DNA of 62,979 nucleotides, filler included, from Conidiobolus incongruus B7586 (Eukaryota), in assembly GCA_000697335.1 (NCBI GenBank). It is 17 parts of 17 records of this genome, joined end to end, with 100 filler letters (N's around TTAATTAATTAA, not from the genome) between each part and the next. Parts side by side here need not be neighbours in the genome. Positions count along the whole stretch, not along the records: positions 19,616 to 21,829 come from JNEM01004232.1; positions 21,930 to 25,325 come from JNEM01004233.1; positions 25,426 to 29,126 come from JNEM01004236.1; positions 29,227 to 30,711 come from JNEM01004238.1; positions 30,812 to 32,018 come from JNEM01004239.1; positions 32,119 to 33,446 come from JNEM01004240.1; positions 33,547 to 34,998 come from JNEM01004243.1; 10 more parts are not named here. One strand, 5' to 3'. Position numbers and translations under genes: made by a program. The notes under the pieces were generated by a model. That model worked only from the letters and a program-made list of their open reading frames with translations. It was not told where the DNA came from and did no database searches. Below, piece after piece: positions 12,683 through 61,797 of this stretch (positions are counted from its first letter, which is position 1; each line of letters starts with the position of its first letter).

Positions 12683-15600
12683 ATGGATATAATACCTCCA
12701 AGTGGTAATAATGAGCCACGTATGGATTTTCGTAGTCCTCGTCCTAATGTACCAATAGAAATTCCGTTGAAATCAGCTACTTCTTATACCAACCGTCCTC
12801 AGAGTCCCGACACTTTGCGTAAAGTAAAAACCGATATTAACGCTCCTTCAATGAGTAATACCCCAGAATTTCATACACCATTATCTCCCCAAAGTATAGA
12901 TACTTCCAGTATGAAAGATGCCATTTCGGAAACTGATGCTCCAGTATCCCAATCTCATCCTTTAGGTCCCATATTCGTCTACATTGAGCCTTTTATGGGA
13001 AGTACTTGGTTTAATTATAGTTTGATCATTTCTATGGTGATATTGACATACCTCATGACAAAACTTCGCATGGGTGTAGTCACCTGTCTCGGTTTAGGAT
13101 ATTTAGTTGGTATATTTGAATTCACAATTCATTTGAAGTTAACTAATTCAATTTATTTAGCACAATTATATAAATTATCATGGAAGACAACTTACCTTAA
13201 AGAAAAACAAAACATTAAAGAATCGGTTAACGGTCCCGAATTAGATACCGATTACGAAAGGGCACGTTGGGTCAACCATTTTTTAGATAGATTTTGGAAC
13301 GAATTCGAAAATTATTTGACCAAAACTATCGTTGATAGTGTCGAACCCATTATCACTCCTTATTTACCAAGCTTTGTACCCTGGGTCAAATTTACTACCT
13401 TTACAATGGGAACCAAAGCACCAGTTATTGAATCGATCAAGGGGTTTAGAAGGATTGAAACCGATCTCGTTCTTATGGATGCCGAAGTTTCTTTCACACC
13501 ATACAGTGAAGAAAATTTGAATGAAGATAAAACCAATTTAAAAATTGTAGTCACTACTCGCGTTCAATTTGGCGCTTATCACATCGATATTCCAGTTTAT
13601 CTAGATAACATTAATTTACACGCATTTGCACGGATCAAGCTTCGTTTTATGAATGATTTCCCACATATTAGAATGGTAGAAACCTCCCTTTTAAATGCAC
13701 CAACTTACGATTATAGTATTAAATTGTTTAGTGAGAGATTTGGTTACGACTTAACTAACATTCCCTACCTGCAAACTTTTATTAAAAAGCAAGTGAATGC
13801 TATTTTAGGTCCAATGATGTTCGCTCCCAATAAATTTATTCTCGACCTTGAAGCTATTATGAGTGGTGGCGTTGAAGCTAATTTCCCTATTGGTGTCCTC
13901 CAGATTTACATTGACAGCGCTCGTGGTCTTAAGAATACTGAACTTATTGGTGTCCCTGATCCTTATGTCAGCTTAAATATTGAAGGTCGTCAAGAAATTG
14001 GACGTACTCAAGTTGTTTGGAACAATCTTAACCCTACCTGGGGTGAATCGTTCACTATTTTAGTTCACAGTCTTTCTGAAACTTTAAATTTGAAGGTGAT
14101 GAATCACAATCTTGCCAAACAGTCCAAGATGGGAACTGCACAATTCAATATGAGCTCTTTGCTTACTAATCCTCGTCAAGATCTTGTTACCAAAGTTATG
14201 CGCAACTCTAAGACAGTTGGTGAGCTAGCATTTAGGGTTAATTACTTCCCCGCAGCTGACCCCATCAAGAACGAAGATGGAACTGAACAGGTTATCGAAT
14301 CCGACAGCGCTGTCGTTCGTTTCCATTTAAGGCAGGTCGAAGGCATGAAGAAAGGTGGCAATATCATTAACTTAACAAAGAATCAAGCTCAACTCATTTT
14401 GGATCTCAATGGGAAAGTTCAACATAAATCACCTTTCAAGAATATTTCTGGTAACATGGTTTTCGAGGATACATATGAAACCTTCATCGAGAGTATCAAG
14501 AAAACAAAGGTCAAGGTCATTTTACGTCTTTCAGATCGCTCTGTAATTGGCCACTACTCCTCTACTTTATCTGAAATGATGGCCAGTATTGCCGATAATA
14601 AAGAATGGTTCAATTTCGAGGCCCCAGGTCATGAGGGTAGTCTAAATGTCAAATTAGATGTCAGATCCAAGCCAGTCATTGTCGATCCTAATGCTATTCA
14701 GGGTATCCTTCCTCCCATCGGTTTTGTCAGAGTTGAAGTGATTGAAGCTACAGGACTCAAGGGTGGTGAATTAATTTCAAGTATGATCATGTGCGTTCAT
14801 TCTTAAGCCTCTATTAACTTATAACTTTTAGACCCCGAGCCATATTGTCAAGTTGTTCACTCCAACAAATTAGTTGGCAAGACGCGTTGGTTAGATAACA
14901 CGACTAAACCTGTGTGGAATGATGTGTATTACATCCCTGTCCATGGCGAGAGCGATGCTTTATCCTTCGAGGTAATGCATTTCAACTCAGTTCAAAAAGA
15001 CAAGCTATTAGGTAAAACTAGTGTACCTATTAAACCTTTACTTGGACCCAAATGGGGTTTCAAGGAGGGCTATCAACACGGTGAATCTCACGACGAGTAA
15101 GTTTTTTTTTGAATTATGACAAATTCTTATTAACATTACTATAGATGGTATCCCTTACAAATCAAAGAAGAAAAAGAAAGAGGTAGTATTCATTTGAACT
15201 TGCAATACTTCTCCCTCCATCCTCAATGCCTCAATGATACCAAGCAAGTGGAACAAGTCTTAGACCAAGCCAAAGAAAAAGATAATACAGTTGTCGAAAC
15301 TAAGACTCACGAAACTCAAGATACTCCAGCTGATTCCAATACACTTGCATCTGTCAACCCTGACGAGTTACAAAAAGTTCACGAAGAAATTGAAAATCAA
15401 TTCAAACTTACAGATTACAGTAATTATATTTTGTATATTTATATTTCAACTTAATTTATTCAAATTTATTTTAGATGCTGGAATCCTTCGTATTATTCTT
15501 CATGAAGCTAAAGGTGTTGGAAATGCTAAATCTAACGTTCATGCTGTGATTCTTCTCAATAACAATGAACGTGTCCCAGTTCACAAGACTACATCCAAAC

Positions 15601-17388
15601 GTGGCTCTAACCCCATTTTTGAAGACACCTGTCAGACTTTCATTAAAGAAGTGGATATTGATCGTATTACAGTCAGTATTAGATCTACCAAAGAAGGAGG
15701 TCATGGTAAAGAGTCAGAACTCGCTAGATGGACTGGATCCGTAAAGGAAATTGTTGAGAATCTCTCCGAAGAAAGCAGAACTTTCAATTTTACTAATAAC
15801 ACCATAGGCGAACTTCGACTCAGTTTCAAATTCGATGCCTGTGATTACACGATCAATCCTTCTGAGAGCGGTAGAAACATGGGTATCTTACAAGTCACCG
15901 TTGTCAATGCCGAGAATTTGATTGCCGCGGATAGATCCGGTACCAGTGATCCCTATATCACCTTCACTCTTAATGGTGAAAAGGTTTTTAAGACCGAAAC
16001 CCACAAGAAGAATCTCAACCCTGAATTCAATGAAACCTTCACTGTTGCTATTGAAGATCGTATTCAATCTAAATTTGTCATGGAAGTATTTGACTGGAAC
16101 CAACTTGAGAAGCATAAGAGTTTAGGATCGGCCCAATTAGATCTCTCTTTATTAGATGTTGAAACTCCTTTTGATGTCCCAGTTGAATTAGAAAACGTCA
16201 AATCTGGTATTGTTAATTTAAGAATGTTTTTTGCCCCTCAATATGTCTTAGAGGATGACGAAAAACATGCTCTACCAGGCATGATTTTAGACTCAGGAGC
16301 CCAATTTGCAACAGGACTTGCTAAAGGAGGTGTCAAATTAGCTGCTAGATCGCTCACTGGAGGTGCTTCTCTCGCCGTTGGAACTGGTAAATTCGCTGGA
16401 CAAGCCATTGCTGGTGGTGGCAAATTGGCTATTGGAGGTGCCAAAACTGTCCTCTCCGCACCCATCAATGTCGCCAAGGGTGGTGCTGGTCTAGTTGGTA
16501 GTTTATTAGGTAAAAAGAAGAAAGATAACACTGATTCAGATCGTGAAAGCCGACTTTCCCAAAGTTCTACCCAGCGTCACTCTCTAATATCCCCTCAAGC
16601 TAACACTCCTGTCCATCAAGTTGAATCACATACAGGTAGTTTTATATATTTATTTAATATCTACATCAGTTTATTAATTATTAATTATAGAAACTATAAA
16701 TTCTGAAACTCCAACACTAATGAAAAATAATCAACCATCACATTATAATTCTCAACAACCATCTGTAACCTTCAGTCCTCCACAAACTGATAATAATGTT
16801 GGTGTACCTCTCCATCAGCCTACAAGTACAAATTCTAACATTTCCGATGATTTCAACTCACCTGGCTCTCTCAAACTAACCATTTTTGAAGCTCAAGACT
16901 TAATGGCTGCAGATACTAAGAATAGCAGCTCAGATCCTTACATTAAACTATACATCGGCCGCAAGAATGTGTACAAGACTAAGGTGATCAAAAGGACACG
17001 CAATCCCCAATGGAACGAAGTGTACATCATTCCCAACTATCTGATTTCCGAGCCCATCAGTATCGAATTCCAGGTGAAGAGCTACGCACTCCTCGGTGAT
17101 GGACCCGAATTGGGCCTCTACATCCTCAACACTGGTGATTACATTTCCCCCACCAACACGTCACAAGACTTCTGGGCCTCCAACCTCAATGGAAAAGTCC
17201 GATGTGGTCGCCTTCATCTCAAACTCGAATTCATCCCCCACGGCGTCTACCTTAGTCCCACCTTGGCACGTAACTCTACGTCCAACCTCAGTGAATCTAG
17301 CTTCAATATGAACGACGCCACCGACGGTTCTAAGAGTTCCAAACTTTTCGGCAAGATCAAGAAGGGATTCGGCAGTATCAAAAATTAA
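12683..17388 (+). CDS. TCB: Tricalbin / extended synaptotagmin (TM hairpin, SMP domain, about six C2 domains), ~1481 aa. Exons 12683-13109, 13161-14780, 14832-15096, 15145-15419, 15475-16635, 16691-17388
   Basis: SMP start ERARWVNHFLDRFW..FTMGTKAP; C2 motifs GVLQIYIDSARGL..PDPY, ADRSGTSDPY, SSDPYIK. Five GT-AG introns (51, 51, 48, 55, 55 nt) join the ORF fragments in one frame; spliced length 4446 nt is divisible by 3. Confidence 0.95.
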
Positions 17389-20300: not shown

Positions 20301-22063
20301 TTATAAATGGTTACTTCGTAATATTATTTATATCATGATTAATTTATAAGCTTTTTTGGATACTTTATTTGATTAAAACATCTATTAATTTCTGATCTAA
20401 ATTAAAAATATTATAAACATCACTTCTAGTATCCTATATCCAAAACCAATATATAATTAATTCTGATACTTTTTAATAACATAAGTAAATTTTTATTTAT
20501 ATATAAATAATTAATATATAATGAGGAATAAATCGAGACTATTTTATATATAATAATTTTCTCTTTTTTAATATTTTTTTATCAATTTTTAGTTATAATT
20601 ATAATTTAGTTAACTATAATATTATAATATCTTATAACTATATTCAAAATATATTTAAACTTAACTGATGAATATGTCATCTGATTTTAATTCTATTTAT
20701 AATAACACCAAGTTATTGTATTTTATATAAAAATCGATTCAAATATTAGATTTTGATTTAATTAAATATTATCAACTAACTAACAAAATCAAATATTCGT
20801 TTTGGTATGAATAAATATTTTGTTAATTCTTAATATATACGTTAATAGAATTATTTTTCAAATTTGTAAAACAACATATAGTATTATAGCATTATACTTA
20901 CTTTAGGTTATTAATAGACGTTTTTATTATTCTACTCTAGATAACAAAATTATTTATGCAATAAAATAGCTTCAAAATAATAATTAATTATAATATCAAA
21001 TACCACAGTAAGAAATTTAGCTTTATAGATTATTTTTTAATATATTTTATTTTAATTATATTATTAATTTTATATATGACCCTTATTTATACTAAATATC
21101 TTTATTATTTTAACTTGAATATTGATATAGGAATTAAATAATAATATAATATATATACAATTAATATTTTTTTATAATATATAAATTTTTATTTTATATT
21201 TAACAAGCGTGTAATATTTCAGAGTTCTTTATTAACCAATCAATTATGATATTTTATGAATTAATTTAACTAATTTGTAAAAATTTTATTTTATAAATAT
21301 ATTTTTGACTTATATAAAATAATAATAATTTGATACGTTATAATTATATGAATAAAATAGATATGGTAAATCTTTCCTTGTTTCTTAATGTAAAATCATT
21401 GAAAATTAAAATGATATATTATAAAGTCATGATTTAATATAAAAATTACTTTTCAATAAATAATGATAATATCAAAAATTTATAAAATTTTGATAATTAA
21501 TTGGTTTGATTTTGAAATATAAATAAAAAACCATATAATATAATTATAAAATTTATTAATCAATTTTAATTTATAAATAAAATATTTGCTATTATTCAGT
21601 ATAATAGGCATTATTTTATCTTAATTCCTTATTTTGTGTTAATAAGTAAAAATATATATATATAATTTAAAATTTATCAATTATACTCATTTTTATAATA
21701 ATATCTATAATTTATAATATTTTAATAAATTTTATTTAATTTAGTTATTATTCTTTTTAGATTTTATAATCTATAAAATAACTATTCTATATTATTATTA
21801 ATTAATCTAAATTTCAGTTTTATGGTATTNNNNNNNNNNNNNNNNNNNNNNNNNNNNNNNNNNNNNNNNNNNNTTAATTAATTAANNNNNNNNNNNNNNN
21901 NNNNNNNNNNNNNNNNNNNNNNNNNNNNNTTTTTTATTATTTCAAATTTATGATAATAAACTAAAAAAAAGAATAAATTTATTAAAATTATATTTAAAAA
22001 ATTAAATATAAATCTATTAGTTTTTATTTAATAAAATATTACCTAAAGATTTATAATATTTTA

Positions 22064-25000
22064 TATATACTAGCTTATAAAAGTAAGTTATAAAATTAAA
22101 ATTTCTTATATATTTACTTATATCTTAAATAGTTCTTAATTAAATAAATTTAAATTAAAATATATAATTTACCTATATACTAACCTACAAAAATAAGTTA
22201 TAAAATCAAAAACACTTATATTTTTACTAATAACTTAATAAATATTTAATAAATTAAACTTAAATTAAATAACAAAATCTATTATATTTATTAATTATAT
22301 ATATTATTAAATAATGATATATAATTATTAATTAGCTAAAATATAAACTTTTAGATTTTACCTAAGATAAGTTATAAATTTGTGGGTTTTTAGTGATAAA
22401 AAATATTAAAACCTAGTATATTTACCTTTAGCTTTTCTAATTTCTTTAAGTTTATAGGGTATAGAATCAACTAACTTTTTATATTCAGAAGGGTTAATCT
22501 TATTCTATGCTTCTTAAATATATTTTTAAAGTTGATTTAAATTTTTTGCTAAAGGGAAAACTTTAATAGTTTTTTTTAACTAATCCTAAAGATATTTAAT
22601 TAGATTAAAATTAAAAGATTAAAAAAGCTACTTTATAACTATTATCTTATTATTTTTAAGTTATTTGGTAGTAAAAGCTATAATATAACAAGAGGTATTA
22701 TCTTATTAGAAAATAACATTAAATTTGTTTAACCTATACTATTCAATGGTTTTTTTCAATTCATTGTTTAAAATACTTTACTATATTTTAGCATTAATTC
22801 CCCTATTAATTTTATAAAAATACTTTATACTTAATGATAATATATATCCCTAAATAATAATTAACCTATTATTATATTTTTGGGTAAAATTAATATAATA
22901 GTCACAAAGTAATTTTATATCTTTTCTGAAGCATTTAGTTTTTTTATTAGAATTACTAAAGTATATTTTTGTTTTATTAAATTAAATAACTTTACTCTAA
23001 TTAGTTTTAGTTTAATATTAGTGATAATATTTAAATTCTTATCTAGTTTTACAATAGGATTTTTTTAGTTAAGGGTGTTTTTTCTTAAAATGTAAGTAGT
23101 ATCTATGATAATATAAAACGTATATAATAATATTTGTGCTAACTAATATTCTTATATAGTTTTATAGTTCCTGCTATATTTTTATAATAATAATATATTT
23201 ACCTATATTAATCAACCTATAAATATACTTCTTATTATATTCATCTATAATTTTAACAAACTTAAGTTTAAGTTTAAATGTTTTTTTATTGCTATTCTTA
23301 ATAACTTTAGCTATAGTAGATTAATTAACACTAGTAATTCTAATAATATCATAAGTTGATTTACCTTCTTTATAAAGTTAATTAATACACAAGTAGATTT
23401 TTTTAAAGAGCAGTTTAAATATAATAATACTAATAAAAAAAATTAGTATATCTGTAAAATATTATATAAAATAATAACAAAAAAAGAAAAAAGATATGGT
23501 TATATATTATTATATATATCCTTTTATCTCAAAAACCCACAAATTTATAACTCACCTTAGTTAAATATTAAAGTTAATATTTTTGCTAATAATTTACTAA
23601 AAATATCTAAATATATTTATTTATTATTAAATAATATATTTTAATCATATATTATAGTTTCAAGTAATATAAAATATATAAAATTGTTTTAATTATTAAT
23701 TAAAATATATATATTTTTAATTTTATAATTTATTTTTATAGGTTACTATATTAGTTAATTATAAATAACTATATTTGATTATATTTTATTAACTATTAGT
23801 TAATATATTAAAACCTAAAATTTAACTAAAATGGGCTATAAATTTTTAGGTTTATATATTAAAAAGGTATAAATAATAAAACTTATATATATCTTGTTTT
23901 TTTTTGTTATATTATAGATATTATAAAATTATTAAGCTAATATTTTAAAATAATAATTATAATACTTAAATCTCTCTTTAAAAAAGTTTATTTTTATATT
24001 AATCAACTTTATAATAAAAATAAATCAACTTATAAAATTGCTAGGATTACTAATATTAGCTAATTTATTATAGTTAGGGTTATTAAGAATAATGTTAAAA
24101 AAACACCTAAACTAAAACTTAAGTGTATTAAAATTATAGATAAACATAATAAAAAGTATATTTATTGATTAGTTAATATAAGTAAATATAATATTATTAT
24201 AGAAATATAACAAGAATTATAAAATTATACAAAAATATTAATTAGTATTAATATTTTTATATATATATTTTAAATTACAATAGATATTCCTTATACTTTA
24301 AGAAAAAACACCCCCAATTAAAAAAATCTTATTATAAAGTTAAACAAGAGTTTAAATACTAATATTAAAGTTGAACTAAAACTAACTAGAGTAAAGTTAT
24401 TTAGTTTAATAAAACAAAAATATACTTTAGTAGTTCTAATAAAAAAACTAAATAATTTAAAAAAAATAAAGAATTATTTTATAACCATTATGTTATTATA
24501 ACCTAAAAATATAATGATAGGTTAATTATAATTTAAAAATGTATATTATCTTTAAGTATAAAATATTTTTATAGAGTTAATAAAGGAATTAATGCTAAAA
24601 TATACTAAAGTATTTTAAACAATGAATTGAAAAAAACTACTAAATAATATAAGTTAAATAAATCAAATATTATTTTCAAACAAGATAATACCCCATTTTA
24701 TATTATAAAATTTATTTTTAAATGGCTTAAAAATAACAAAATAACTATTATAAAATAGCATCCTTAATTTTTTAATTTTAACCTAATTAAATATCTTTAG
24801 AATCAAATAAAAAAATTAATTAAAGCTTTCCCCTAGCAAAAAATTTAGATTAACTTTAAGAATATATTGAAAAAGCTTAGAATAATATTAATCCTGCTTA
24901 ATATAAGAAGCTAGTTGTTTTTATACCCTATAAACTTAAAGAAGTTAGAAAAACAAAAGATAGATATATTAGATATTAATTTTTCTATCAATATTAAAAC

Positions 25001-25212
25001 TTGCAAATCTATAAATTATCTTAGCTATATTTTTAATTTTAATATATCAATTAATAATTAATTAAATCTAACTTTAAATATTATATTATAAATAAAAATT
25101 ATATATTAATTACATAGTTTAATATAAATTTATTTAAATTAAAATTGATCAAAATATTAATAGAAATATTTATATTTTTAATTTTATGACTTATTTTTAT
25201 GGGCTAGTATAT
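22064..25212 (+). mobile_element. Tc1-family relic whose left TIR is split by an inserted second Tc1 copy
   Basis: 22064-22175 joined to 23751-23870 matches the reverse complement of 5490-5722. Transposase remnant IFKQDNTP at ~24672. Right end ttatttttatgggctagtata at ~25212. Confidence 0.85.
22176..23750 (-). mobile_element. Tc1-family relic, full length (~1.57 kb), nested insertion
   Basis: Ends tatactaacctacaaaaataagttataaaa and ttttataatttatttttataggttactata. Minus-strand VIF**DNTSCY (=FQQDNAPCH) at ~22685-22718. Confidence 0.9.
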
Positions 25213-27312
25213 ATATTACCTATTTTAATTAAATATTTAAAATATTTGAAATTTAATATATTATTCAAAGTAATATATATCTTCATAAATTATTATTCAT
25301 TTATGTATTTTCATACTTAATAATANNNNNNNNNNNNNNNNNNNNNNNNNNNNNNNNNNNNNNNNNNNNTTAATTAATTAANNNNNNNNNNNNNNNNNNN
25401 NNNNNNNNNNNNNNNNNNNNNNNNNTTATTAAATACCATTTTAATTAAAATAATGTATTAATATAGATATTATGTTAATTTTTATATATAATTAAAATTT
25501 AAAACTATTAAAATATTATTAAATTTTATTTAATTGGCTATATATGTATAAAACTTATATAAACCAAATTCTTTATATTATATTTTTTGTTTTAAATAAA
25601 AAAACTATTTTATATTATTATAATTAGAATATTAAAATTATTAAATGCTAGTTAATGATTTTTCTGAATAATTAATGTTAATTATTTTTGCCAATAATAG
25701 TACTTTAATAAATAGTATTTCTTTAATTAATATTGAATTAATATTATAAGTTACATTATATAATGAAAAAAGTAATTTATTGCCTAATTTGTCAGCATTT
25801 TCAAAAATTATATTAATCAAAAATAATTGAAATTAATAGAATAATTTTTGATTTTATAACCCCTTGTAAATTTTATATTTTCAAAATTTCCATAAATTTT
25901 AATATTAGAATATATAGAACTTAACATAAATAACTAAATATTTTAAATGAATAAATAATTAATTTTTTATTAATCTATCTCAAAATAATTTTAATAATTT
26001 TGTAAGTTAAAATTACAGATAGAAATTAATTGATCATTAATATAAGGTCTGATAAGTAATATAAAGCTTATCTTTTAATACAACAAAAATTGTTAAAAAG
26101 TTAATTAATCCATTTATATTAATATAATGTTATAAATCCCTGAACCAGTCTTTTAAATGAAATTATCTTTTTGAAATAGTGTTGATAATTAAAAAACCTT
26201 ATAAATCAATCAATTTTCATATATCAAATCCAAATGCTTAAAGTTAGTGAATTTTACTGAATTAAATCAACAAAACTTCATTATACTATTGAATATTTTA
26301 TATCAAAAAAGTAAATTTTAAAACATTAGTACATTAATTAATCTATCACAATAGCTGTTATAAAGCGCTCTATCACAAATACCAAACTCATGAAACAATT
26401 ATTAATAAGAGGCTTTACTTATAAACCACCTGTTTTAAATACAAATATCTTTCAAATTTATCATTTCTTAAACTTCAAATTCTTACTTTCCTTGGAATGA
26501 TATAATATATATTAAACTCCACAGCACAAAATACTTATTCAAATCTTTAATGCTGAGATAATTGTTAAAATAAACACAAATTAAAACTAAATTAATATTC
26601 TGAATATCATTCGAATATTTGATTCACTATTCCTGTGTTGAATTTTACATTTTACAATAGGCTATTATTCATCAATGATTCAAAATTGTATCGTACTGTG
26701 ATGGACAATATATGATGTTAGCAGTGGTTAGATTAGATTTGTAGCTATTGTTGAATTATTAATTATTTTGTAAAAAATTTTATAACTATTATGAATAGTA
26801 GATATATCTAAGGAAACCATGATTAATTTTTTATGATTTAATGTTAATTTGAAAACGAATTAAACAGTCCTGCCTAATTACTTTTGAAAAGTATAGTTTC
26901 TTAAAGTCTAATAAAATATATAAATAGCTTTATAATAGTTGGTAAAATGATATTAAAATGGTCTTTGGACTTGAATATTTAATCAATTAATTTAATAATT
27001 ATATCTGTGGAAAATTGTCAATTTGATAAATTCAATTACAATTTTTCAATTCAAAATATTCGGAACAATGTATACCTTATAGAGGTAGTATTAACTCATT
27101 TTTGATATTGATTGAGTTTCAATCGACATCATTTATAGGCTAATAACATCATTTTTAAATCATATTATTGGACAATTAGGTCATATCTGATTAGCCAATG
27201 ACTTTTCAGAATTCTAATCATGGTATCACTTCAATAACATTTCCTATATAAACAGAAAGTCATAGATGAGGTCATTAGTTGTTATTTGATTTTACGTTAA
27301 AATACTTTAGAA

Positions 27313-28319
27313 ATGGCTCCCGTTGCTTTCCCTGATCTTAGTAAAGCTAGCAAAGATTTGTTAAGCAAAGACTTCCCCTCTGGAAACGTCAAATTAGAAG
27401 TCAAGACTAACACTGCCAATGGCGTAGTAAGTTGTTTATCTTCATCTGTTCATTTTTAGCTCATTCCTTTTAAATAGACTTTCTCTGTTAATGGTCACCA
27501 AGATAACTCTTCTGGCGTTGTCTTCGCTGAAACCAAGGTTAAATACAATGATTTCCAAAGAGGTCTCACCTTGACTGAAGCCATTACTACCGCTAATCAC
27601 CTTTCAGCCCAGCTTGAATTGGAACATCCTTCTACCAAAGGTATCAAATTTGATTTCCTTGCTTCTCTCTCTCCCGCCACCAGGTAAACACTTCGTTTTA
27701 TATATTTATATTGATAATCTAACTTCTTTGAAGCCAAAAGAGCTTATTAGCCAATGTCTACTACAAGCACCCCAATGTCCACTCTCGTTTCAACGCCAAC
27801 CTTCTCAAGGGCCCTATCTTCAATGCTGATGTTGTTATTGGGTAATTAGTTTTAATTCTGTCTTGTTTGAAATAACTAACATATGAATTTAGTCAAGATG
27901 GTGTCTTCGTTGGTGGTGAAACTGGTTATGATATTGAAACGGGAGCTGTCACTAAATATAATGCCTCTGTTGCTTACTTCCACAAGGATTATACTGCTGC
28001 TATCCATGCTACTAATGCTTTATCCGCTTTCTCTGCTACTTATTACCACCGTGTTAATGCTGATGTTGAAGCCGCCGCTAAGGTCTCTTGGGACTCTAAT
28101 GCTGCCACCAACGCTGTTGCTGTTGAAATTGGTACTAAAGCCTACCTTGATCGTGACACTTTTGTCAAGGCTAAGATTGACAACAGCGGCAAGTTAGGCT
28201 TGGGATACACTCAATTGCTTCGCCCTGGTGTTAAACTTAGCATTGGTGGTTCATTCGATACTGCTAAGTTGGACCAAAACGCTCACAAGGTTGGTCTTGC
28301 TATTGTTTTGGAAAACTAA
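27313..28319 (+). CDS. POR1: Mitochondrial outer-membrane porin (VDAC), 284 aa. Exons 27313-27426, 27478-27683, 27734-27841, 27893-28319
   Basis: MAPVAFPDLSKASKDLLSKDFP..KLEVKT; FVKAKIDNSGKLGLGYTQLLRPGVKLSIGGSFD..AHKVGL. Introns of 51, 50 and 51 nt (ctaac branch points in introns 2 and 3); spliced length 855 nt. TATATAAA at ~27245. Confidence 0.97.
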
Positions 28320-29292
28320 ATTTAATCCTTCAATAATTAACAATACAAAATCTTTTTTTTTCTAATTTAAATTGCAATTCTACCTTATACATTTATATAA
28401 ATATAGCTCACTTTGTTAATCTTGGATTTTCATAATCAATCAGTTTTTAGTTTAATTCATCTGAATCTGTCTTTTAAAGTTCCAATCTCAAATTAATCAT
28501 TTATTCATTCAACTTAATTTTGATTATATCATTATCAATTTGAATTATCTCACTCTTTATTACTATAAACAATTATTGTATTGACTCTGGTTTATTTGAT
28601 AATTAAGAAACTTTCACTCCAAATTAAAATATATATTTAGAGAGCCAATTATAAATAAATTTAAACTAAATATGAGTTAAACTTTAATTTATTGATGCTA
28701 TTTATATTACAGTCATAATAACTTATACTTTATTATATATCTAATTCATTAGATAGCTTAGATCGTTTTATAAACTATTTGAATAAAATTTTTAATTAAC
28801 TGCATTTAAAAAATTAACATTGATTTAATAATATATATATTCAAATTTATTTCTTTAATAAAATAAAATATAATAATATTATATATTTTAAAAAATCATT
28901 TAATTTTCTTTTGATGACAAATATTTGATATTTATTATTATTGTCAGATGTTGAAAATAATTTGAAAAATAAATATTAAATAAATTATAATATTATTAAT
29001 ATATTGATATTTAAAATATCAATAAAGTTAGTCTTGTAAAAAATTATAATATTTTCTTATTTATTTTTTATATTAATTTGATATAATATATCATGTTATA
29101 AATATTTTTATTATGTATTATTAATANNNNNNNNNNNNNNNNNNNNNNNNNNNNNNNNNNNNNNNNNNNNTTAATTAATTAANNNNNNNNNNNNNNNNNN
29201 NNNNNNNNNNNNNNNNNNNNNNNNNNTAAATAAATTAAATTAATTTATATAATATTATATTATAATATTTATAAAAGAACTATTTATTCAAA

Positions 29293-30711
29293 TATACTAA
29301 TCTATAAAAATAAAATCAAAAATCAAATATAAATATATATTTTAATTAATAACAAAAGTAATTATATATATTAAAATACTTGAAACTATTATATATAGTT
29401 AAGATATATTATTTGATAATAAATAAATATATTTAGATATATTTAATAAATTATTAATAAAAATATTAACCTTTAATATTTAACTAAAGTGAGTTATAAA
29501 TTTACTGGTTTTTGAGATAAAGGGATATATTTAATAATATATAATCATATATTTTTTTATTATTATTATATATAATATTTTACAAATATATTAAATTATT
29601 TTTATTAGTATTATTATACCTAAATCCCTCTCTAAAAAAATCTACTTGTGCATTAATTAACTTTATAAAATTAGTAAATTAACTTATGATATTATTAAAA
29701 TTACTAGTGTTAACTAGTTTATTTTAGTTAAAGCTATTAAGAATAATAATAAAAATAAATTTAAACTTAAACTTAAATGTGTTAAGATTATAAATGAATA
29801 TAATAAGAAATATATCTATAGGTTAGTTAATATAAGCAAGTATAATACTATTATAAAAATACAACAGGAATTATAAAACTATACAAGAAAATTAATTAAT
29901 ATTAATAATATTATATATGCTTTATATTAATATAAATACCACTTACACTTTAAAAAAAACACCCCTAATTAAAGAAATCCTATTATAAAATTAAATGGGA
30001 GTTTAAATATCATTGCTAATACTAAACTAAAATTAATTAGATTAAAGTTATTTAATTTAATAAAATAAAAATATATTTTAATAAATCTAATAAAAAAATT
30101 AAATGCTTTAAAAAAGATTTAAAATTATTTTATAGTTATTATGTTAATTTTATATAAAAATACAATAATAGGCTAATTATTATTTAAAAATATATATTAT
30201 TTTTAAATGTAAAATATCTTAATAAAATTAATAAGGGAATTAATATTAAAATATACTAAAATATATTAAATAATGAATTAAAAAAATTAATCAAAGAATA
30301 TAAGTTAAATAAATCTAATATTATTTTCTAATAAAATAATACCTTTTGCTATATTATAACTTTTATTACCAAATAGCTTAAAAATAACAAGATAATATTT
30401 ATGAAGTAATCTCTTCAATTTCTTAACCTTAACCTAATTAAACATTTTTAAAATTAATTAAAAAAAGCTATTAAAGCTTTCCCCTTAATAAAAAATTTAG
30501 ATTAACTTTAAAAATATGTTTAAAAAATATAAAACAAGTTTAACCCTTCTTAATATAAAAAGTTAGTTAATTCTATATTTTATAATCTTAAAGAAATTAA
30601 AAAGGTTAAAGATAGATATATTAAGTTTTAATTTTTTTTATCATTAAAAACCTATAAATTTATAACTTATCTTAAGTAAAATTTGGAAGTTTATATTTTA
30701 ACCAATTAATA
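29293..30711 (+). mobile_element. Tc1-family relic, right end lost at a gap
   Basis: Outer end atatactaatctataaaaa; inner repeat aagtgagttataaattt (~29487); IF**NNTFCY at ~30323; colinear with the 33547 copy. Confidence 0.88.
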
Positions 30712-30811
30712 NNNNNNNNNNNNNNNNNNNNNNNNNNNNNNNNNNNNNNNNNNNNTTAATTAATTAANNNNNNNNNNNNNNNNNNNNNNNNNNNNNNNNN
30801 NNNNNNNNNNN

Positions 30812-31530
30812 CTAATATTAAATTAAAACTTATTAAAATAATTTAATTTAATAAAATAAAACTATATTATATTAGATCTAATAAAAAGATTAAATACTTA
30901 AAAAAAGATATAAAATCATTCTATAACTATCTTGTTAATTTTACCTAAAAATATAATAAAAAATTAATTATAGTTTTAGAATATATATTTTCTATAAATA
31001 TAGGATAATTTAGTCAAGATAATAAGGGAATTAATATTAAGATATATTAGAATATTCTAAATAAAAAATTGAAAAAGACTATTGAAGAATATAAGTTTAA
31101 TAAGTGTAATATCATTTTCTAACAAAACAATGCTTTTTATAATATTATAACTTTTATTACCAAATAGATTAAAAATAACAAAATAATAGTTATAAAGTAT
31201 TCTTTTTAATTTTTTAAATTTAACCTATTTAAATAACTTAATAATTAATTAAAAAAGTTATTAATACTTTCCTTTTATCAAAAAATTTAGATTAGTCTTA
31301 AAAATATATTTAGAATATATAAAACAAGATTAACCCTATTTAATATAAAAAATTAGTTGATTTTATACTCTACATATTTAAAAAAGTTAAAAAAAATTAT
31401 AGATATATTCAGTATTAATTTTTTTTATCATCAAAAACCTATGTATTTATAACTTATTTTAGTTAAAATTTAAGAATTGATATTATAACCAATTATTCTC
31501 TAAATATCATCATTTAATGATTTATATTAT
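30812..31530 (+). mobile_element. Tc1-family relic, 3' half
   Basis: IIF*QNNAF at ~31110 and the inner right repeat tttataacttatt at ~31447. The right boundary is approximate. Confidence 0.8.
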
Positions 31531-32118
31531 TCATAAATATATATAAATATAATTATTTAATCTGGGTTTATTTTATTAAATAATAATCTGTTATTAAAAA
31601 TTTAAGATTTTGGATTTTATGATTTTTATAAATTAATATATTAATTTGAATTTTAAAATAAAACTTTTATTAATTATAATTCTTATTTTTGATTGAAATA
31701 AATATTATAAAATTTTAAATTTTTAAAATAATTATTTGATTTAAATAATTGATTCAAAATATAGCAAAATAATATCAATTTTTCTAATTTAATAGTTAAA
31801 GTTTTTATGATATTTTTTAATAAGAATTTTATCAAATATATTTAAAAATTAATCTAAAAATTTAAATAATTACTCTATATAAAATATCTAATGTTGGAAA
31901 TTATATTTACAAAATAATATGAAAAAAATCTAATTTTTTAAATAATTTTTCAATAATATTAAATAAACTAAGTTATTTTATCTATTTACTCCTAGCTATA
32001 TAATATATTTATAATATANNNNNNNNNNNNNNNNNNNNNNNNNNNNNNNNNNNNNNNNNNNNTTAATTAATTAANNNNNNNNNNNNNNNNNNNNNNNNNN
32101 NNNNNNNNNNNNNNNNNN

Positions 32119-33446
32119 AAACATAAATATTTTTATTAATAACTTAATTAATATTTAATGAAATAAACTTAAATTAAATAATTAAAATGATATATATTTA
32201 TTAATAATATAAATCATTAAATAATGATACTTAGTTATTAATTGGTTAAGATATCAACCCTCAAATTTTATTTATAAGAAGATATAAATTTATTGGTTTT
32301 TGGTGATAAAAAAAATTAAAACTTAATATATCTATCTTTAACATTTTTAAATTTTTTAAGTTTATAAAATATATAATCAACTAACTATTTATATTAAAAA
32401 GGGTTAATTTTGTTCTATATTTTTTAAATATATTTTTAAAGCTGATTTAAATCTTTTGTTAAAAAAACATTAATAACTATTTTTAACTAAACTTAAAGAT
32501 ATTTAATTAAATTAAAGTTAAAAAATTAAAGAAACCATTTTATAATTATTATTTTGTTTTTTTAAGCTATTTAATAATAAAAGCTATAATATAATAAAAG
32601 ATATTATCTTATTAAAAATAATATTAGATTTATTTAACTTATATTATTCAATAGTTTTTTTTAACTTATTATTTAAAATACTTTAATATATTTTAATATT
32701 AATTCCTTTATTAACTTTATAAAGATATTTTATACTTAAAAATAATATATATCTTTAAATAATAATTAACCCATGATTATACTTTTAAGTAATACTAAAA
32801 TAATAATTATAAAGTAGTTTTATATCTTTTTTAAAATATCTAGCTTTTTTATTAAATTTATTAAAGTATATATTTATTTCATTAGATTAAATAACTTTAA
32901 TTTAATTAATTTTGATTTAATATTAGTGGTGATATTTAAATTCTTATTTAACTTTATAGTAAGATTTTTTTAATTAAAGATATTTTTTCATAAATTGTCA
33001 GTAATATCTATATTAATATAAAACACATATAATAATATTAGTGTTAAGTAATATTCTTATATATTTTTATAGTTCTTGTTATATTTCTATAATAGTATTA
33101 TACTTGTTTATATTAAGTAACTTAAAAATATATTTCTCATTATATTTATTTATAATCTTAACATATTTAGGTTTATATTTAAATGTGTTTTTGTTATTAT
33201 TTTTAATAACTTAAATTATAATAAACTAGTTAACACTAGTAATTTTAATAATATCATAAGTTGATTTAATTTCTTTATAAAGTTAATTAATACACAAATG
33301 AATTTTTTTAGAGAGGGTTTTAAGTATAATAATACTAATATGAAAAATCTAATATATCTGTAAAATATTATATAAAATAATAGCAAAAAGAGAAGAAAGA
33401 TATGATTATATATTGTTAAATATATCCCTTTATCTCAAAAACTTAT
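32119..33446 (-). mobile_element. Tc1-family relic filling a whole contig
   Basis: Colinear with 22215-23540 throughout. Confidence 0.88.
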
Positions 33447-33546
33447 NNNNNNNNNNNNNNNNNNNNNNNNNNNNNNNNNNNNNNNNNNNNTTAATTAATT
33501 AANNNNNNNNNNNNNNNNNNNNNNNNNNNNNNNNNNNNNNNNNNNN

Positions 33547-34956
33547 AATATTAACCTTTAATATTTAACTAAGGTGAGTTATAAATTTGTGGGTTTTTGA
33601 GATAAAGGGATATATATTTAACAATATATAACCATATCTTTTTTCTCTTTTTGCTATTATTTTATATTATATTTTATAGATATACTAAATTTTTTTTATT
33701 AGTATCATTATACTTAAATCCCTTTTTAAAAAAATCCACTTGTATATTAATCAACTTTATAAAAAATATAAATTAACTTATGATATTGTTAGAATTACTA
33801 GTGTTAATTAGTTTACTATAGCTAAATCTATTAAAAATAATAATAAAGAAATATTTAAACCTAAATTTAAATATGTTAAAATCATAGATGAATATGATAA
33901 GAAGTATATTTATAGGTTAGTTAATACAGGTAAATGTAATACTACTGTAGAAATATAGTAGGAACTATAAAACTATACAAGAATATTAGTTAACACTGAT
34001 ACTATTATATATATTTTATATTAACATAGATACCACTTACACCTTAAGAAAAAATACCTCCAACTAAAAAAATCTCACTATAAAACTAGGTAAGAGTTTA
34101 AATATTGTTATTAATATTAAACTAAAACTAATTAGAATAAGGTTATTTAGTTTAATGAAACAAAAATATACTTTAGTAGATTTAATAGAAAAGCTAAATA
34201 CTTTAAAAAAAATATAGAATTACTTTGTAACTATTATATTAATTTTACCCAAAAGTACAATAGTAGGTTAATTATTGTTTGAGGATATATATTATCTTTA
34301 GGTATAAAGTATCTTTATAAAGTTAATAAGGGAATTAATATTAAAATATACTAAAATATTTTAAACAATGAATTAAAAAAAACCATTGAATAATATAAGT
34401 TAAATAAATCTGATATTATTTTTTAGTAAGATAATACCTTTTACTATACTATAGCTTTTACTACCAAATAGCTTAAAAATAATAAGATAACAGTTATGAA
34501 GTAGCTTTTTTAATCTCTTAACTTTAATCTAATTAAATATTTTTGGGATTAATTAAAAAAAGTTATTAAAGTTTTCCCCCTAGTTAAAAATTTAAATTAA
34601 CTTTAAAAATATGTTCAAGAAATATAAAACAAAATTAACCTTTCTTAGTGTAAGAAGTTAGTTGATTCTATACCCCACAAACTTAAAAAAGTTAGAAAAG
34701 CTAAAAGTAGATATACTAGGTTTTAATTTTTTTTATCATCAAAAACTTACAAATTTATAACTCACCCTAGGTAAAATTTAAAGGTTTATATTTTAATCAA
34801 TTAATAGTTAAATATCATTATTTAATGATAAATATAATTAATAATTATAATAGTTTTTAATTACTTAATTTAAATTTATTTTATTATATATTAATCAAGT
34901 TATAAGTAAAAATATAAGTGTTTTTGATTTTATAACTTACTTTTGTAGGTTAGTAT
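33547..34956 (+). mobile_element. Tc1-family relic with the most readable DD34E transposase
   Basis: VI*FNETKI at 34142 (=VIWSDETKI); F**DNTFYYT at 34421 (=FQQDNAPCHT); *LF*SLNFNLIKYFW (=WPPQSPDLNPIEHLW). D at 34430 and the E position at 34535 are separated by 34 codons. Inner repeats at ~33570 and ~34755. Confidence 0.93.
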
Positions 34957-35098
34957 ATTATAATAATTTTGTTTTATATTAAACATAATTTTTATTTTNN
35001 NNNNNNNNNNNNNNNNNNNNNNNNNNNNNNNNNNNNNNNNNNTTAATTAATTAANNNNNNNNNNNNNNNNNNNNNNNNNNNNNNNNNNNNNNNNNNNN

Positions 35099-36100
35099 TA
35101 ATTATAAATAATTATAGTTAATAATAATCATAATATTCAAGATATACATAAATTAATACCTAATCATATTAAGTTTATAAATATATATAATCAAGAATAT
35201 ATTTATAAATTAATTAATATTGATATATTTAATATTATTATATACAATAATATTATTATAATAATATAATGGTAATTTTAAGGCTATATAAGAATATTAA
35301 TAGTATAATTATTATTTATCCTTTCTATTAAAGTTAAAACTGATTATATTTTAAGAAAAAACTCTTAATTAAATAAGAGTTTAAATAACTTTATGAGAAT
35401 TAGATTAAAATTAATAAAAATACATGCTATTTTGTTTTATTTAAAAATATATTTTAATACATCTATTAGGAATATTATTTATTTCCCGAAAATGAAAAAT
35501 TATTTGATAATTATTATATTTTTTAACTTGTAAATATTATATTGGTAAATTAAAGTTTAGTGTCGTATATTATCCTTATATATATACATATATATATATA
35601 TGATATTTTTATAAAATCAATAATGAAATTAAGATTAATATATATTAAAGTATTTTGAATAATATAATAGAAAAAACTTTTAAATAGTATAGGATAAATA
35701 TTTAATTATTTTTGAGCAATATATATATCTTTTAATATATCGTTATTTCAACTATAAAATAGCTTACATATATCAGAAATTCTGCCATAATATAGCTTTT
35801 TCAATATTTTAATTCTAAACCAATTAAACATATTTAATATATATTAAACGATGGCTAAATTTTTTCCACAAGCAAAAAATTTAGATAAGCTTTAAAAGTC
35901 CATTTAAGAAGCTTAAAATATGTTTGATTTCGTTAAATATAAAAAGTTAATTAAGTCTATAGCCTATAAATATAAACAAATTAAAAGCAAAAAGATTTAA
36001 GTAATAATATTATTAATATCATTAATATTACAAAAATCTATAAATTTAAAACTCTTTATCATTAAACTTTTAGTTTTAATATGTCAATCAATAATTGTAT
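35099..36100 (+). mobile_element. Older, more diverged Tc1-family relic
   Basis: Recognisably colinear with 33830-34800 (e.g. ttaagaaaaaac, aagtattttgaataat, agcaaaaaatttagat) but with indels and transversions. Boundaries are approximate. Confidence 0.65.
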
Positions 36101-37976
36101 AATCTCTATTGGGCTTAGTTTTTTGATATTTATCAAGTATTTAAAATATAAATATTTGTTATTTTAATTTTATAACTATTCAAATTATATTAGTTATTTA
36201 TTATTATAAAAGATTTGATTATATATTGAATAAAATACCTTTTATAATTCATTTCAAGGTCAAGTTCACGATTGTCAGGTCATTTAAATTATAAGAAAAA
36301 TTTATCCTGGATATATTAAAATATAAAATATATTTATTAATATATAAAAATAATACCTTTATTTCAAATTTTATATGGACTGATTCAATTTTATATTGCA
36401 TATTAAATGTAATAATTTTGGATGTATATATAAATCTAATAGATTCAAATTAGTTATTAATTTATTTAACTCAACCTGTTTATCAGATAACCATAAAATT
36501 TAAGATATTTTGTATAAAAGAATCTTAATTAATTTTTTCACATTGAAATATTTCTTATTAAATTAAAATTCGTAATATTACTTAAAGAATGAGGATTAAA
36601 GAAGTGAAAATGGATTATATTAGATTTTTGCAATATCCAATATAATAGAGGTTAAAATATGTCAAAATATATAAATTAGTATTGAATTAATAATGGAATT
36701 AGTATAATAAATTTCTTGATTTCATTGGTTTGATTTATATTCAACTTTTTAATACTGGTTTCAATACTCTAATTATAAAGTAAATTTCACTATGGTTAAT
36801 TTTTTGCGAATATATTTATATGTAATGAAAATATTATAGCTTGCAATAACTTAAAAATAAATTTTTTCATTTTATCAAGTAAAATGTATTCAAAAGTATT
36901 TTCATTGTAAAATATATAATGCTATATACAATATGGCAAATCTTAATATCAAAATTTAAAATGAAATATAGAAAAAGTATATATGCTAAAGATAACAATT
37001 ACTAACTTATCATGATCAAATAATTATTCAGGGAAATTCGTGAAACAAAATTAACTCAAAGCGAAGGTTCATTGGGAAATTCTCATGAATAAATATAAAA
37101 AATCAATTGAAACCACATATTTAGGGTATTGTTTGGTGTCGTAAAATTGGAATAACAAATGTAAATTTCATCCAATAACTAATCAATTTAACTCTTTCCA
37201 TAATTTGTATTTGACTGTAGTGTCCATTGAAGATGAAATAAAAATATGATACAAATTTAATTTCAGATTTTTGAAGAATATTTGAAATTAAAACTTTTGA
37301 ATAAAATTGAATAAGACTTAGAAAATTTTATAATATTTATTATAATAGATTATATTACCTCAGAGTCAAAAAATATGAAATTTAAGTTTTATTTTTTTAT
37401 ACTTATTACTCTTAACAATAGAAATATATTATAAACAAATAGGAATATATATATATATGATGAGACTATTAATTCTATTATATATTTTATATATATTTAA
37501 TTTTTCCTATTATCAATATAATTAAAAGATCAGAAATTAAGAATTTTATTATTTTTTGTGTTTTCATAATTATAAATAATTTAATTAATATAATCCCTTT
37601 TCTTCCTTTTAATATCATTTTTTCTTTTGATTTATTTTTAAAGTCATTAATTTTTCAATATTTAAAACTTCTATAACTAATATAATTAATGAAATTATTT
37701 TATTAGACAAACTAATAAATAATAACTAATATATTCACAGCCTAAACAAATTTACTGATATATCAAATTATTTATCATTTCTAATTAACGTTTTTTAAAT
37801 GTATATTAATTTCAACTACAATTAGTGTTAAATATATAACATTTTATAAAGTTTTATTTAAATATCATTAATTTTATTTGATTTTTCAAGGTATTTAATT
37901 TATTTTTTAAATTATTGAAATAATAGTTAATAAATAAATAAAAATAATTAAGATAAATTCATAAAATCAACTATAT

Positions 37977-38360
37977 TGTCACGAGTCAGATGACTCCCTT
38001 CTTCCTAAGTGTCTTTACATCAACCTAATGTTAAAGTCATTTCCATCTCACATATCATCTGCTCTTGCTTTATCTTTAAATTGGCCAATGATACAAGTCA
38101 CCGGATAATCTAATTAATGACGTTACCCAACCCACACTATATAAAACCCGGAATTAGAGCTATCCTCAGCAGGAAGGGTTTGGTCTGGGTCCTCCCAGCT
38201 ATTTGACTTAAATCAATTAACCCCCTATCTCCCTAACACTTACCTGGAATTACCCAGATCTCTCTCTTTTACTCAAGCTACTCTGGACACGGCTTTCCCA
38301 AGAAGTGTTAATATAATCTCCAAAAATTAATATATTATTTGAATGTATTAAATCACGATA
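37977..38360 (+). mobile_element. Probable solo LTR (384 bp)
   Basis: Begins TGTCACGA and ends TCACGATA (one transition from ..GACA). Flanked by ATAT on both sides (37973-76 and 38361-64). Internal TATATAAAA at ~38138. Abruptly more GC-rich than its flanks. Confidence 0.7.
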
Positions 38361-40309
38361 ATATGTTGTGTATTATATTATTATTTTGATTGAAAATAGA
38401 TATAAAATGAATTTATTTAATATTAACAAATAATCAATTATATTGATTTAATATGTTCAAATCATAAATGAAAATTATCATTTAATAATAACTGGTTGAA
38501 ATATAATTAATAAATATTTACAAATGGTGAAAAGAATATAGAAGTCATATTATTATCAAAATATTTACAATGTTATTGAATCCAACCATTATTAAATTAA
38601 TTGATTTAATATAATATATATTGTGATATTTAACAAAATTTTAAAATTTCAATATTATAATATTTTCAATATAAATTATAAAATTTTTGTGTATATTTAA
38701 AATAATTGTTTATCACTTAATATTACCTTTTGTCAGAGATTTTATGAAAATCATATAATACTTAATCTGATTTAATGGATGATTTAACTTTATTAATAAT
38801 TCTTATTGGTTAAAATCTTGAGATGCTATTATCCCATGATTCAGCTCCCGTCCCTAAAGGGTAATAAATATGATCAATAACCGATAAATTGAACCAATCA
38901 AATTTAAATTGAATTAAAATTTTAATAAAATAAGGTTGGCAGGTGTATCAGCCATTATTCGTAGAACACTTGCAACTTTGGAGTCGGGGTCTTTTCTCCC
39001 AATGCAGGGTCTGAAATATGATCCCTTTGCGATGGTGTCGAGACGGTAGATGCCCAAGTGTAACTAAGCCAACCATAATGTAATTCTAATTTTTTACTAT
39101 ATATTTAATAAAATATCATTATATATTAGTTTTAAGTGAGCCTTTCAGTTCAAGGTTTGAATCTTATTGAAGGAATTCTTCAACATGAATTTTAGATTAA
39201 TTATAATTCAATAATTTACAATGTATAAAGTTATTTTAATATGAATTTTAGAGATTTATTAAGTATTAACAAAAAAATATATTTATTAATCTAGTAGTAT
39301 TGAATTTATATATCTATATATTCTTTTTTAAATACAATATATTTTTATTTTAATTTTTAGAATTTTTTCATTAATAAAATTAAAATAAATTATATTGATT
39401 TGATTCTTATAAGAAATTTATCAAATTCAAATTTTTGATGATTAATATAACTTACTTTAAATTATAATTATTGGTAAATAATATCTATTATTACTATATA
39501 TCCATAATGATAACATTATATCACATAACTCTCCTCTCTCTTGTATCACTTATATTTGATTAATATTTTTTAAAATGTATTTGTTATATTTTATAATATT
39601 TTTTATAATTAAAGATCAATGTTAGAAAAGCACTCGTAATATGATTTAGTAAATTATTTATTAATCCTGCTTTTTAATGCATTGGGACTCTATATCTTAG
39701 ATCTTACTATTGAGACAATGTAGCAGAATATCCAAAGAAAAACTATCTTCTATCTTTATCAGTTTTGGGTTTAAATAGTTGATTCAATGAATGATATGGG
39801 ATTTGGTCATAACCTAATAAAGAAGACAAAGAGAACAAAGTGTATCCTTTAACTAAAGACTGGAAAAGCTAGATTAAAATAGAAATAATATTGGTTTAAC
39901 TATCACACTGGGATGGGTGATTAATTTTGAAATATAACAATGAATATTTAATTATAATTTCATGAAAGAATTAGCATTGGGAAGAGTTAGTCTTGTTTGT
40001 TTGGATTTTTAATAATGACATGCTGAAAAATGTTATTTGGAAGATATTGAATGGTCATTAATAGTTATATTGCTTGGATAAATATTATACATTAATCTTC
40101 TTTTCTAATAAATCAAATATTTTATAATTAATTTAAAATTGATAAATTGAGCTTAAATGATTGAATAACTGACATCATTTCAATTTTGGCTAAAAATAAT
40201 TTCAAGAATAACACTTTGGACTTCATATAGTAATAGATATAATGATATATAATTTAAATATTATTGCTAGATATAGTTTATTAATAGTATTTTATGATAG
40301 ATATCTATA

Positions 40310-61423: not shown

Positions 61424-61797
61424 ATATTATAATTTAGCATAATTTAATCTTTTATATTATTATTCCAAAATATTATTGATATATTTTTTTAGAAATAAAA
61501 AATATATTAATAAACTTTTAAATTATTAAAAAATTATTTTATAAAATTTACCAAAATTACATTTTAAATAGTATTTTATTCTATTTTTATAATATATTAT
61601 ATTATTATAATTAAACTTTGCTATATAATAAAACTAAATAAAAGACTATTTTAAATTTTAATTAAAAAAAATACAATGTTGAAAAATTTTTATATTANNN
61701 NNNNNNNNNNNNNNNNNNNNNNNNNNNNNNNNNNNNNNNNNTTAATTAATTAANNNNNNNNNNNNNNNNNNNNNNNNNNNNNNNNNNNNNNNNNNNN

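Follow-up and report, generated by a model that had tools for sequence, protein, structure and literature searches.

The stretch of DNA analyzed here (the window) comprises 62,979 nucleotides, linkers included, from the genome of Conidiobolus incongruus B7586 (assembly GCA_000697335.1). It consists of 17 contigs joined by 16 identical linkers (44 N, a 12-base all-frame stop and 44 N; for example, at 21830–21929); the neighbourhood of a feature is informative only inside its contig, and the order across linkers may be artificial. A single Tc1 transposon family accounts for at least 11 copies and fragments, and many of the contigs terminate within Tc1 copies. In addition, the window contains relics of mariner and Ty3/gypsy elements and host genes encoding tricalbin, VDAC, an LRR protein, a homeodomain protein, a JmjC protein and trypsin (Table 1). 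The GC content is 10–19% in the transposon stretches, 13–23% in other non-coding DNA and 35–42% in exons. The young transposons carry a heavy load of C-to-T and G-to-A mutations that resembles repeat-induced point mutation (RIP).

The Tc1 element is approximately 1.55 kb long, and both of its terminal inverted repeats (about 220 bp) contain two direct repeats, one outer and one inner. A match to Sleeping Beauty (SB100X; E 6e-20) was obtained with the decayed transposase, which has the D-34-E spacing. With its DD34E transposase, repeat structure and TA target, the family is an ordinary Sleeping Beauty-type member of Tc1/mariner, and it is the substrate of the mutation rather than the novelty. 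The insertion site of copy A is a TA within the left terminal repeat of the older copy B, which indicates at least two waves of Tc1 insertion. The two pieces of this repeat (22071–22177 and 23749–23860; body of copy B, 23828–25020) align to positions 0–112 and 109–217 of the left repeat of another copy. Together with the position of copy G against the broken repeat of copy H (42640/42641), this nesting suggests that the elements insert into their own termini. Nesting of G within H was not confirmed, the remainder of the H repeat being unrecognisable beyond G.

With Pfam, copy A and the integrase frame of gypsy gave no match and copy F a weak one. A word-index search with the decayed transposase found no homologue among 7,994 candidates, whereas a full HMMER search succeeded, yielding an intact Tc1 transposase of 338 aa (P0122) that is close to the window family and 35% identical to copy F as now read. 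The cluster of P0122 lies mostly on contigs of ~1.19 kb, equal to the span between the inner direct repeats in the window Tc1.

The Tc1 copies are 76–87% identical to each other, and the four FQQDN stretches compared in the first-pass annotation are present at 34421, 24675, ~31117 and ~22712 (minus strand). Transitions make up 72–90% of the differences among the six closest copies (15 pairs) and 57–90% among nine copies (36 pairs). They clearly dominate, although the original description of the differences as almost only C/T and G/A is slightly strong for all pairs in the window. Contigs from two runs of the same sample were also aligned to copy F (24,962 and 30,850 contigs, a depth that does not equal copy number). 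Transitions were found at 359 of 383 variable places in run X1 and at 367 of 395 in run X4, and at many places among the 40 of 406 rows listed the bulk of contigs have C or G where copy F has T or A. According to a star model, the per-site frequency of C>T is 0.37 and that of G>A is 0.36, compared with 0.019 for each reverse change and 0.01–0.02 for the main transversions (C>A, 0.02). Both types of change occur on the same strand, as the annotation had stated, and they are balanced in all eight copies tested (Fisher p 0.14–0.89).

The direction and sequence context of the changes were assessed using stop codons and the intact outgroup P0122, because a consensus cannot reveal sites that every copy has lost. 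A GC-maximal reconstruction based on six copies had left 15 stops in 337 codons and understated the CpA loss (0.62), and it was replaced. The comparison covered 124 codons that are conserved in 21 relatives, of which 33 still encode the residue. Changes of the C>T and G>A type suffice to account for 109 of the 124, and the reverse changes for 35, of which 33 are unchanged. Compatibility with C>T/G>A is thus 88% at conserved codons versus 14–22% in a shifted-alignment control. At the 222 compatible codons of 328, loss was complete at CpG (57/57) and amounted to 151/180 at CpA (84%), 120/198 at CpT (61%) and 137/318 at CpC (43%). At the most conserved codons 71 of 77 CpA sites were lost; across estimates, the loss is 84–92% for CpA, 56–61% for CpT and 43–50% for CpC. 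Relative to per-site transversions, these model-dependent rates are 116–234-fold at CpA, 45–86-fold at CpT and 32–62-fold at CpC. The fate of six tryptophan codons in eight copies agrees with this order (TAG 24, TAA 19, TGG 4, TGA 1; TAG against TGA, p 1.5e-6). The 5' context in the alignment is flat (0.46–0.53). It is the loss of CpA, and not the loss of CpG stressed in the first-pass annotation, that separates the pattern from ordinary methyl-CpG decay. The RIP composite index is 0.20–0.65 in the young transposable elements (TEs) and −0.18 to −0.80 in the non-coding sets, old mariner relics included.

The consequences for the transposase are severe. As proposed, Gln and Trp codons were turned into stops: among 28 sites of this type, stops occupy 82–92% in the six core copies and 72% in two older ones. 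Reading frames largely survive, also as proposed, with a single frame held across 337 codons in two copies and one to four indel events per core copy. One catalytic Asp codon reads AAT in 8/8 copies, and the Glu codon reads AAA in 7/8. The transposase is therefore destroyed both by stops and by the loss of DDE residues.

The mutations were acquired largely independently by the Tc1 copies. In a comparison of six copies, private splits account for 103 of the 108 defined by transversions, as in a star-like tree, and 47 of the 50 possible retention patterns were seen among 160 informative sites. Pairs of copies do not retain sites in common more often than under a null that preserves the margins (p 0.25; the largest z, 2.6, is that of copies A and G). 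The claim that the mutations arose per copy rather than by descent holds to this extent, with a small excess of sharing that is weighed below. Most of the non-CpG loss occurred per copy.

The hypermutation is restricted to repeats. Young TEs (15,048 bases, 14.7% GC) contain a single CpG (observed/expected ratio, o/e, 0.01) and have a CpA o/e of 0.60, versus 79 CpG, a CpG o/e of 0.53 and a CpA o/e of 1.18 in presumed single-copy non-coding DNA (15,379 bases, 19.8% GC; CpG p 5e-15, CpA p 3e-42). The CpA:ApC counts are 569:945 and 1433:960, respectively. Old mariner relics and contig ends were excluded from the single-copy set, and single-copy status was checked against the sample runs for 54600–61430. 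Coding exons have a CpG o/e of 0.50–0.77; CpG is thus nearly absent from young TEs and kept in single-copy genes, in line with the annotation. Taken separately, the gypsy element and the young mariners have no CpG and a CpA o/e of 0.57–0.78, and the non-coding terminal repeats of Tc1 also have no CpG. Host paralogue pieces and a short repeat on 54600–61430 show transitions at 43 of 93 differences, a partial control that consists of old and mostly coding sequences. The same transition load, which the annotation had named as grounds for abandoning its proposal, was not found in single-copy DNA, the control being composition and old paralogues rather than neutral orthologues. A metagenome scan for close orthologues found only VDAC loci that are 38–49% identical (7 loci). 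Runs X5 and X7, from other samples with the same species label, gave zero and one short Tc1 piece and nothing on the single-copy stretch, which is no proof of absence.

Five old relics (4,292 bases) have a GC content of 13.9%, a CpG o/e of 0.53 and a CpA o/e of 0.89; since CpG is present at this composition, the process is not triggered by AT richness alone. In relic K, 11 of the 24 aligned Gln/Trp-type sites are stops. Relics at 64–70% identity carry CpG again, which would agree with a trigger that needs homology above an identity threshold. Old relics were likely struck once and then released.

Table 1. Transposon copies and host genes in the window.
Feature	Position	Strand	Remarks
Tc1 copy A	22181–23746	−	full length, both terminal inverted repeats; ends approximate to a few bases
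Tc1 copy B	22071–25206	+	older subfamily; interrupted in its left terminal repeat by copy A
Tc1 copy C	29298–30711	+	right end cut by contig end
Tc1 copy D	30813–31650	+	3' half, older
Tc1 copy E	32119–33446	−	both ends cut by contig ends
Tc1 copy F	33547–34952	+	least diverged; decayed DD34E transposase frame ~33700–34725
Tc1 copy G	41082–42640	−	full length; left end abuts broken right terminal repeat of copy H
Tc1 copy H	42641–43910	−	
Tc1 copy I	4171–5716	−	full length, older subfamily
Tc1 fragment J	1–260	−	
Tc1 relic K	35105–36210	+	64–67% identical to young copies; old stops, CpG present again
Mariner transposase relic	6170–7228	+	no CpG; Mos1 match, E 9e-6
Second mariner copy	61798–62651	+	85% identical to 6376–7228
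Old mariner relic	48951–50390	+	
Old mariner relic	10391–11069	−	
Old mariner relic	21125–21822	−	
Old mariner relic	44079–44447	+	
Ty3/gypsy pol relic	300–3500	−	RNase H and integrase still identifiable; no CpG over 3201 bases, CpA o/e 0.57
Tricalbin gene	12683–17388	+	host; unmutated control, coding sequence CpG o/e 0.75
VDAC gene	27313–28319	+	host; taxonomic marker and unmutated control
JmjC-domain gene	55126–57594	−	host; unmutated control, coding sequence CpG o/e 0.77
Trypsin-family protease gene	60665–61423	+	host; unmutated control

Mariner and gypsy elements were said to be struck in the same way as Tc1. Their class identities are borne out by matches to Mos1 and Ty3, as that of Tc1 is by Sleeping Beauty, and the depletion is common to all three classes; per-copy independence was shown for Tc1 only. 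The mariners comprise one close pair, in which 78 of 110 differences are transitions. Gypsy is present as a single copy, whose integrase matches the Ty3 Gag-Pol protein with E 2e-6 and whose RNase H matches with E 2e-5, and its case rests on composition and stop codons. The frame upstream, on the reverse transcriptase side, gave no match when searched. An AT-rich repeat at 7566–10290 (CpG o/e 0.31) is possibly an LTR element or one of another kind; its pieces match the gypsy contig (9513–9886 against 3172–3539, 78%; 7572–7754 against 206–384), and 8830–9251 matches 62553–62979 (74%).

The host was assessed using the VDAC gene. Its last exon is identical at 131 of 141 positions (93%) to that of Conidiobolus coronatus NRRL 28638, the next match being 65%. 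A tree of 33 rows was constructed from the window sequence and 32 of the 120 matches listed, picked for taxonomic spread. In this tree the window is sister to C. coronatus (support 95/92) within a clade that includes Massospora (99/97). A Pezizomycotina host had been set beforehand as an outcome that would reduce the case to ordinary RIP, and forcing VDAC into a clade with five Pezizomycotina is rejected (p-AU 8.6e-5). Judging by this one marker, the host belongs to Conidiobolus (Entomophthorales, Zoopagomycota), near to and distinct from C. coronatus NRRL 28638, and the entomophthoralean placement of the first-pass annotation stands. The JmjC protein is a weak second marker: the search gave one 44% match, whose cluster contains a C. 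coronatus fragment.

Among known systems, the closest likeness is with the RIP of Neurospora (RID, DIM-2; Pezizomycotina). Both share C:G>T:A mutation limited to repeats across TE classes, a preference for CpA, action on both strands, kept frames filled with TAA and TAG, and a positive composite index. Unlike in Neurospora, the host here is a member of Zoopagomycota, and the loss of CpG is no less complete than that of CpA. According to Amselem et al. (2015, PMC4352252), RIP is tied to CpA and was suggested not to target CpG; CpA signatures are linked there to RID and CpG signatures to Masc2-type Dnmt1, and Tuber melanosporum, a RID-bearing ascomycete, is noted as combining CpA and CpG. Muszewska et al. 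(2017, PMC5751038) report RID-like genes in Pezizomycotina and a few Taphrinomycotina and Agaricomycotina, and mention Tc1/mariner elements in Conidiobolus. The pattern found in the window works like RIP; a shared mechanism, with RID, premeiotic timing and pairing of homologous DNA, is only hypothetical.

A second comparison is offered by Zymoseptoria tritici, in which Moller et al. (2021, PMC8016269) describe a mitotic, Dim2-dependent mutator causing C>T at CA and not at CG. The CpA-directed C>T change in transposons is common to both, and in Zymoseptoria it is tied to a C5-methyltransferase and needs no sexual cycle. In contrast, CpG is erased in Conidiobolus, CpT and CpC are heavily struck, and the process is known there from sequence. 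DIM-2 homologues are present in early-diverging fungi (Nai et al. 2021, PMC7862722; a 2026 review, PMC13297926). Mutation of TEs directed at CpG in basidiomycetes and Tuber (Dnmt1/Masc2) is similar in its repeat-restricted CpG loss. However, decay at CpG alone leaves CpA/TpG, and it does not fit the CpA/TpG o/e of 0.60 in young TEs or the non-CpG losses of 43–92%.

The reading we favour, while holding it with some reserve, is an enzyme-driven conversion of repeat cytosines by a recruited methyltransferase. A C5 cytosine methyltransferase is suggested by the order of 3' bases (CpG > CpA > CpT > CpC) on the double-stranded repeats, such a 3'-base preference being established for the RID and DIM-2 methyltransferase systems. 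A cytosine methyltransferase of the DNMT1/DIM-2/RID superfamily would be recruited to copies belonging to similar repeat families, converting their cytosines to thymine over repeated rounds, by enzymatic action rather than passively. Targeting would end once a copy diverges far from its family, and the load would be acquired partly early and partly with age. The conversion might take place in the sexual stage by DNA pairing, as in true RIP, or vegetatively on silenced chromatin, as with Dim2 in Zymoseptoria; the two are given about equal weight. That Conidiobolus possesses a true homology-sensing RIP, without orthodox RID and with CpG plus CpA as its target, appears possible and on the whole doubtful. 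In favour of an enzyme of this kind, PF00145 domains are said to be present in all seven entomophthoralean datasets of one study, C. coronatus included (PMC11105155).

Copy F, with three private transversions in 1,037 columns, already has stop codons at 23 of the 28 positions of the Gln/Trp type. Adding an early offset to a pure clock improves the fit (likelihood-ratio statistic 4.4, p 0.018, for 314 polymorphic sites; 5.8, p 0.008, for 94 outgroup-inferred sites). Weak lag-1 clustering was detected in two of six copies (p 0.03–0.04), and it fails the strand-patch test. The tempo and strand data fit repeated rounds and do not separate RIP from a steady vegetative process.

Several observations weigh against an active, per-copy mutator. 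The load rises with transversion age (Spearman 0.83 and 0.81, p 0.04–0.05, n 6), which is what a passive clock predicts, and the burst term could reflect loss already carried by the source element. Strand patchiness is absent at 20–400 bp (same-strand p 0.07–0.47); a processive single-round mutator would leave such patches, and many rounds would blur them. Four-gamete incompatibility is 0.583 compared with 0.599 ± 0.004 under a null that ignores copy rates, and sites lost in all six copies exceed the binomial expectation (CpC, 7 vs. 0.4; CpT, 5 vs. 1.3). Part of the loss may accordingly be common to several copies, or some of the ancestral codons may have been inferred wrongly. At 10 inferred Arg sites, of which only three are well conserved, the six core copies carry TG or CA as intermediates, and the two never occur together at a site, so the per-copy loss of CpG is less secure than that of CpA, and part of the CpG loss may predate the burst. 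Relic K follows the alternative path at the conserved Arg of GRP, and nine columns of the eight-copy alignment show both TG and CA. No methyltransferase gene was found among the nine long open reading frames of the window. Finally, the approximately 25,000–31,000 contigs aligning to Tc1 imply very many copies, and any defence must therefore be leaky.

The correlation with age could also be accommodated by dense methylation of repeats in all contexts (CpG > CpA > CpT > CpC) for silencing, with the mutations arising by passive deamination of 5-methylcytosine and no dedicated mutator. The strand-symmetric, unclustered mutations and the position of CpG as the most depleted context agree with this explanation, which we nevertheless consider rather unlikely. 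The CpA rate relative to transversions is well above the roughly 10–30-fold figure for mammalian methyl-CpG, and the youngest copy is already mostly converted; the large non-CpG effect together with the early load favours enzyme-driven conversion over passive deamination. Published data fall on both sides. 5-Methylcytosine is confined to repeats in Phycomyces and in the zoopagomycete Linderina (Lax et al. 2024, PMC11258239), while it is described as near-undetectable in early-diverging fungi generally (PMC13297926), and the authors of the Zymoseptoria study argue that CpA conversion is non-spontaneous (PMC8016269).

The strong effect in all four contexts could also be produced by a cytidine deaminase, or by failed repair of uracil or T:G mismatches in repeat heterochromatin, with no methyltransferase involved. 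Composition relative to non-coding DNA hints at a 5' pyrimidine at CpA (TCA 0.30, CCA 0.40, GCA 0.61, ACA 0.65). However, the preference comes mainly from the 3' base, with no 5' effect in the alignment. Deaminases attack retroelements on single-stranded DNA, whereas the target here is a DNA transposon, struck alike on its two strands and in its non-coding terminal repeats, and this origin is judged improbable. Least credible of all is neutral decay under a genome-wide GC-to-AT bias, or an artefact of the assembly or library. The single-copy non-coding DNA also has a very high AT content, and its control is of the limited kind described above, but this DNA retains CpA and half of its CpG, while young TEs do not, and the large excess of C>T over C>A is not that of general drift. 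As for an artefact, the variants are present in two runs, and six contigs of run X4 along 54682–60525 differ from the window at no place.

The pattern was first put forward as a possibly undescribed genome defence, which is too strong. Stajich et al. (2024, PMC11105155) already reported, with caveats, a RIP-index signal in 24.2% of the genome of Zoophthora radicans, 5.7% in E. maimaiga, 2.7% in M. cicadina and 2.4% in E. muscae. The same paper states that RIP had previously been observed in Dikarya only and that the methyltransferase candidates are not readable as RID homologues. Its measure is a windowed dinucleotide index, and the available text gives no value for Conidiobolus sensu stricto, whereas here copies were aligned, polarised and tested for independence. 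A contrary result, which adds to the points against a mutator, comes from Badet and Croll (2025, PMC12543289). In their 1,239 genomes RIP-like signatures are described in ascomycetes only, and C. coronatus (6.4% repeats) and all eight Zoopagomycota are scored as no_rip. Their test requires a two-fold k-mer enrichment over non-coding DNA and could miss a signal where the AT content of such DNA already exceeds 80%. Van Wyk et al. (2021) served as a source of method caveats only. The literature search, whose coverage left most subscription papers outside, found no alignment-level report of RIP-like mutation for Conidiobolus.

What is new here is the alignment-level, polarised evidence in Conidiobolus. 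Copy by copy, it indicates that a strong, repeat-restricted mutator that includes CpA among its targets acts or acted in Zoopagomycota, while mutators of the RIP type are otherwise regarded as an ascomycete trait. If this were true RIP, the process would either be hundreds of millions of years older than Dikarya or have arisen twice. As Conidiobolus is a culturable genus, it would allow direct tests of how old RIP is, whether it depends on RID and on sex, and what role DIM-2-like enzymes play.

Some other features of the window were recorded. Two GC-richer intergenic islands (37980–38300 and 38840–39080) retain CpG. Rfam at the gathering threshold gave no matches in the window, these islands included, and no E-value search was made; a motif at ~38236–38247 in the first island resembles the 5' end of U1 snRNA. 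A repeat of ~200 bases at 58315–58523 has at least five other copies in the sample contigs, with ~80–90% identity, and by eye it is not stripped of CpA or CpG. A diverged paralogue of the JmjC gene (55363–56983) is present in contigs of the same sample.

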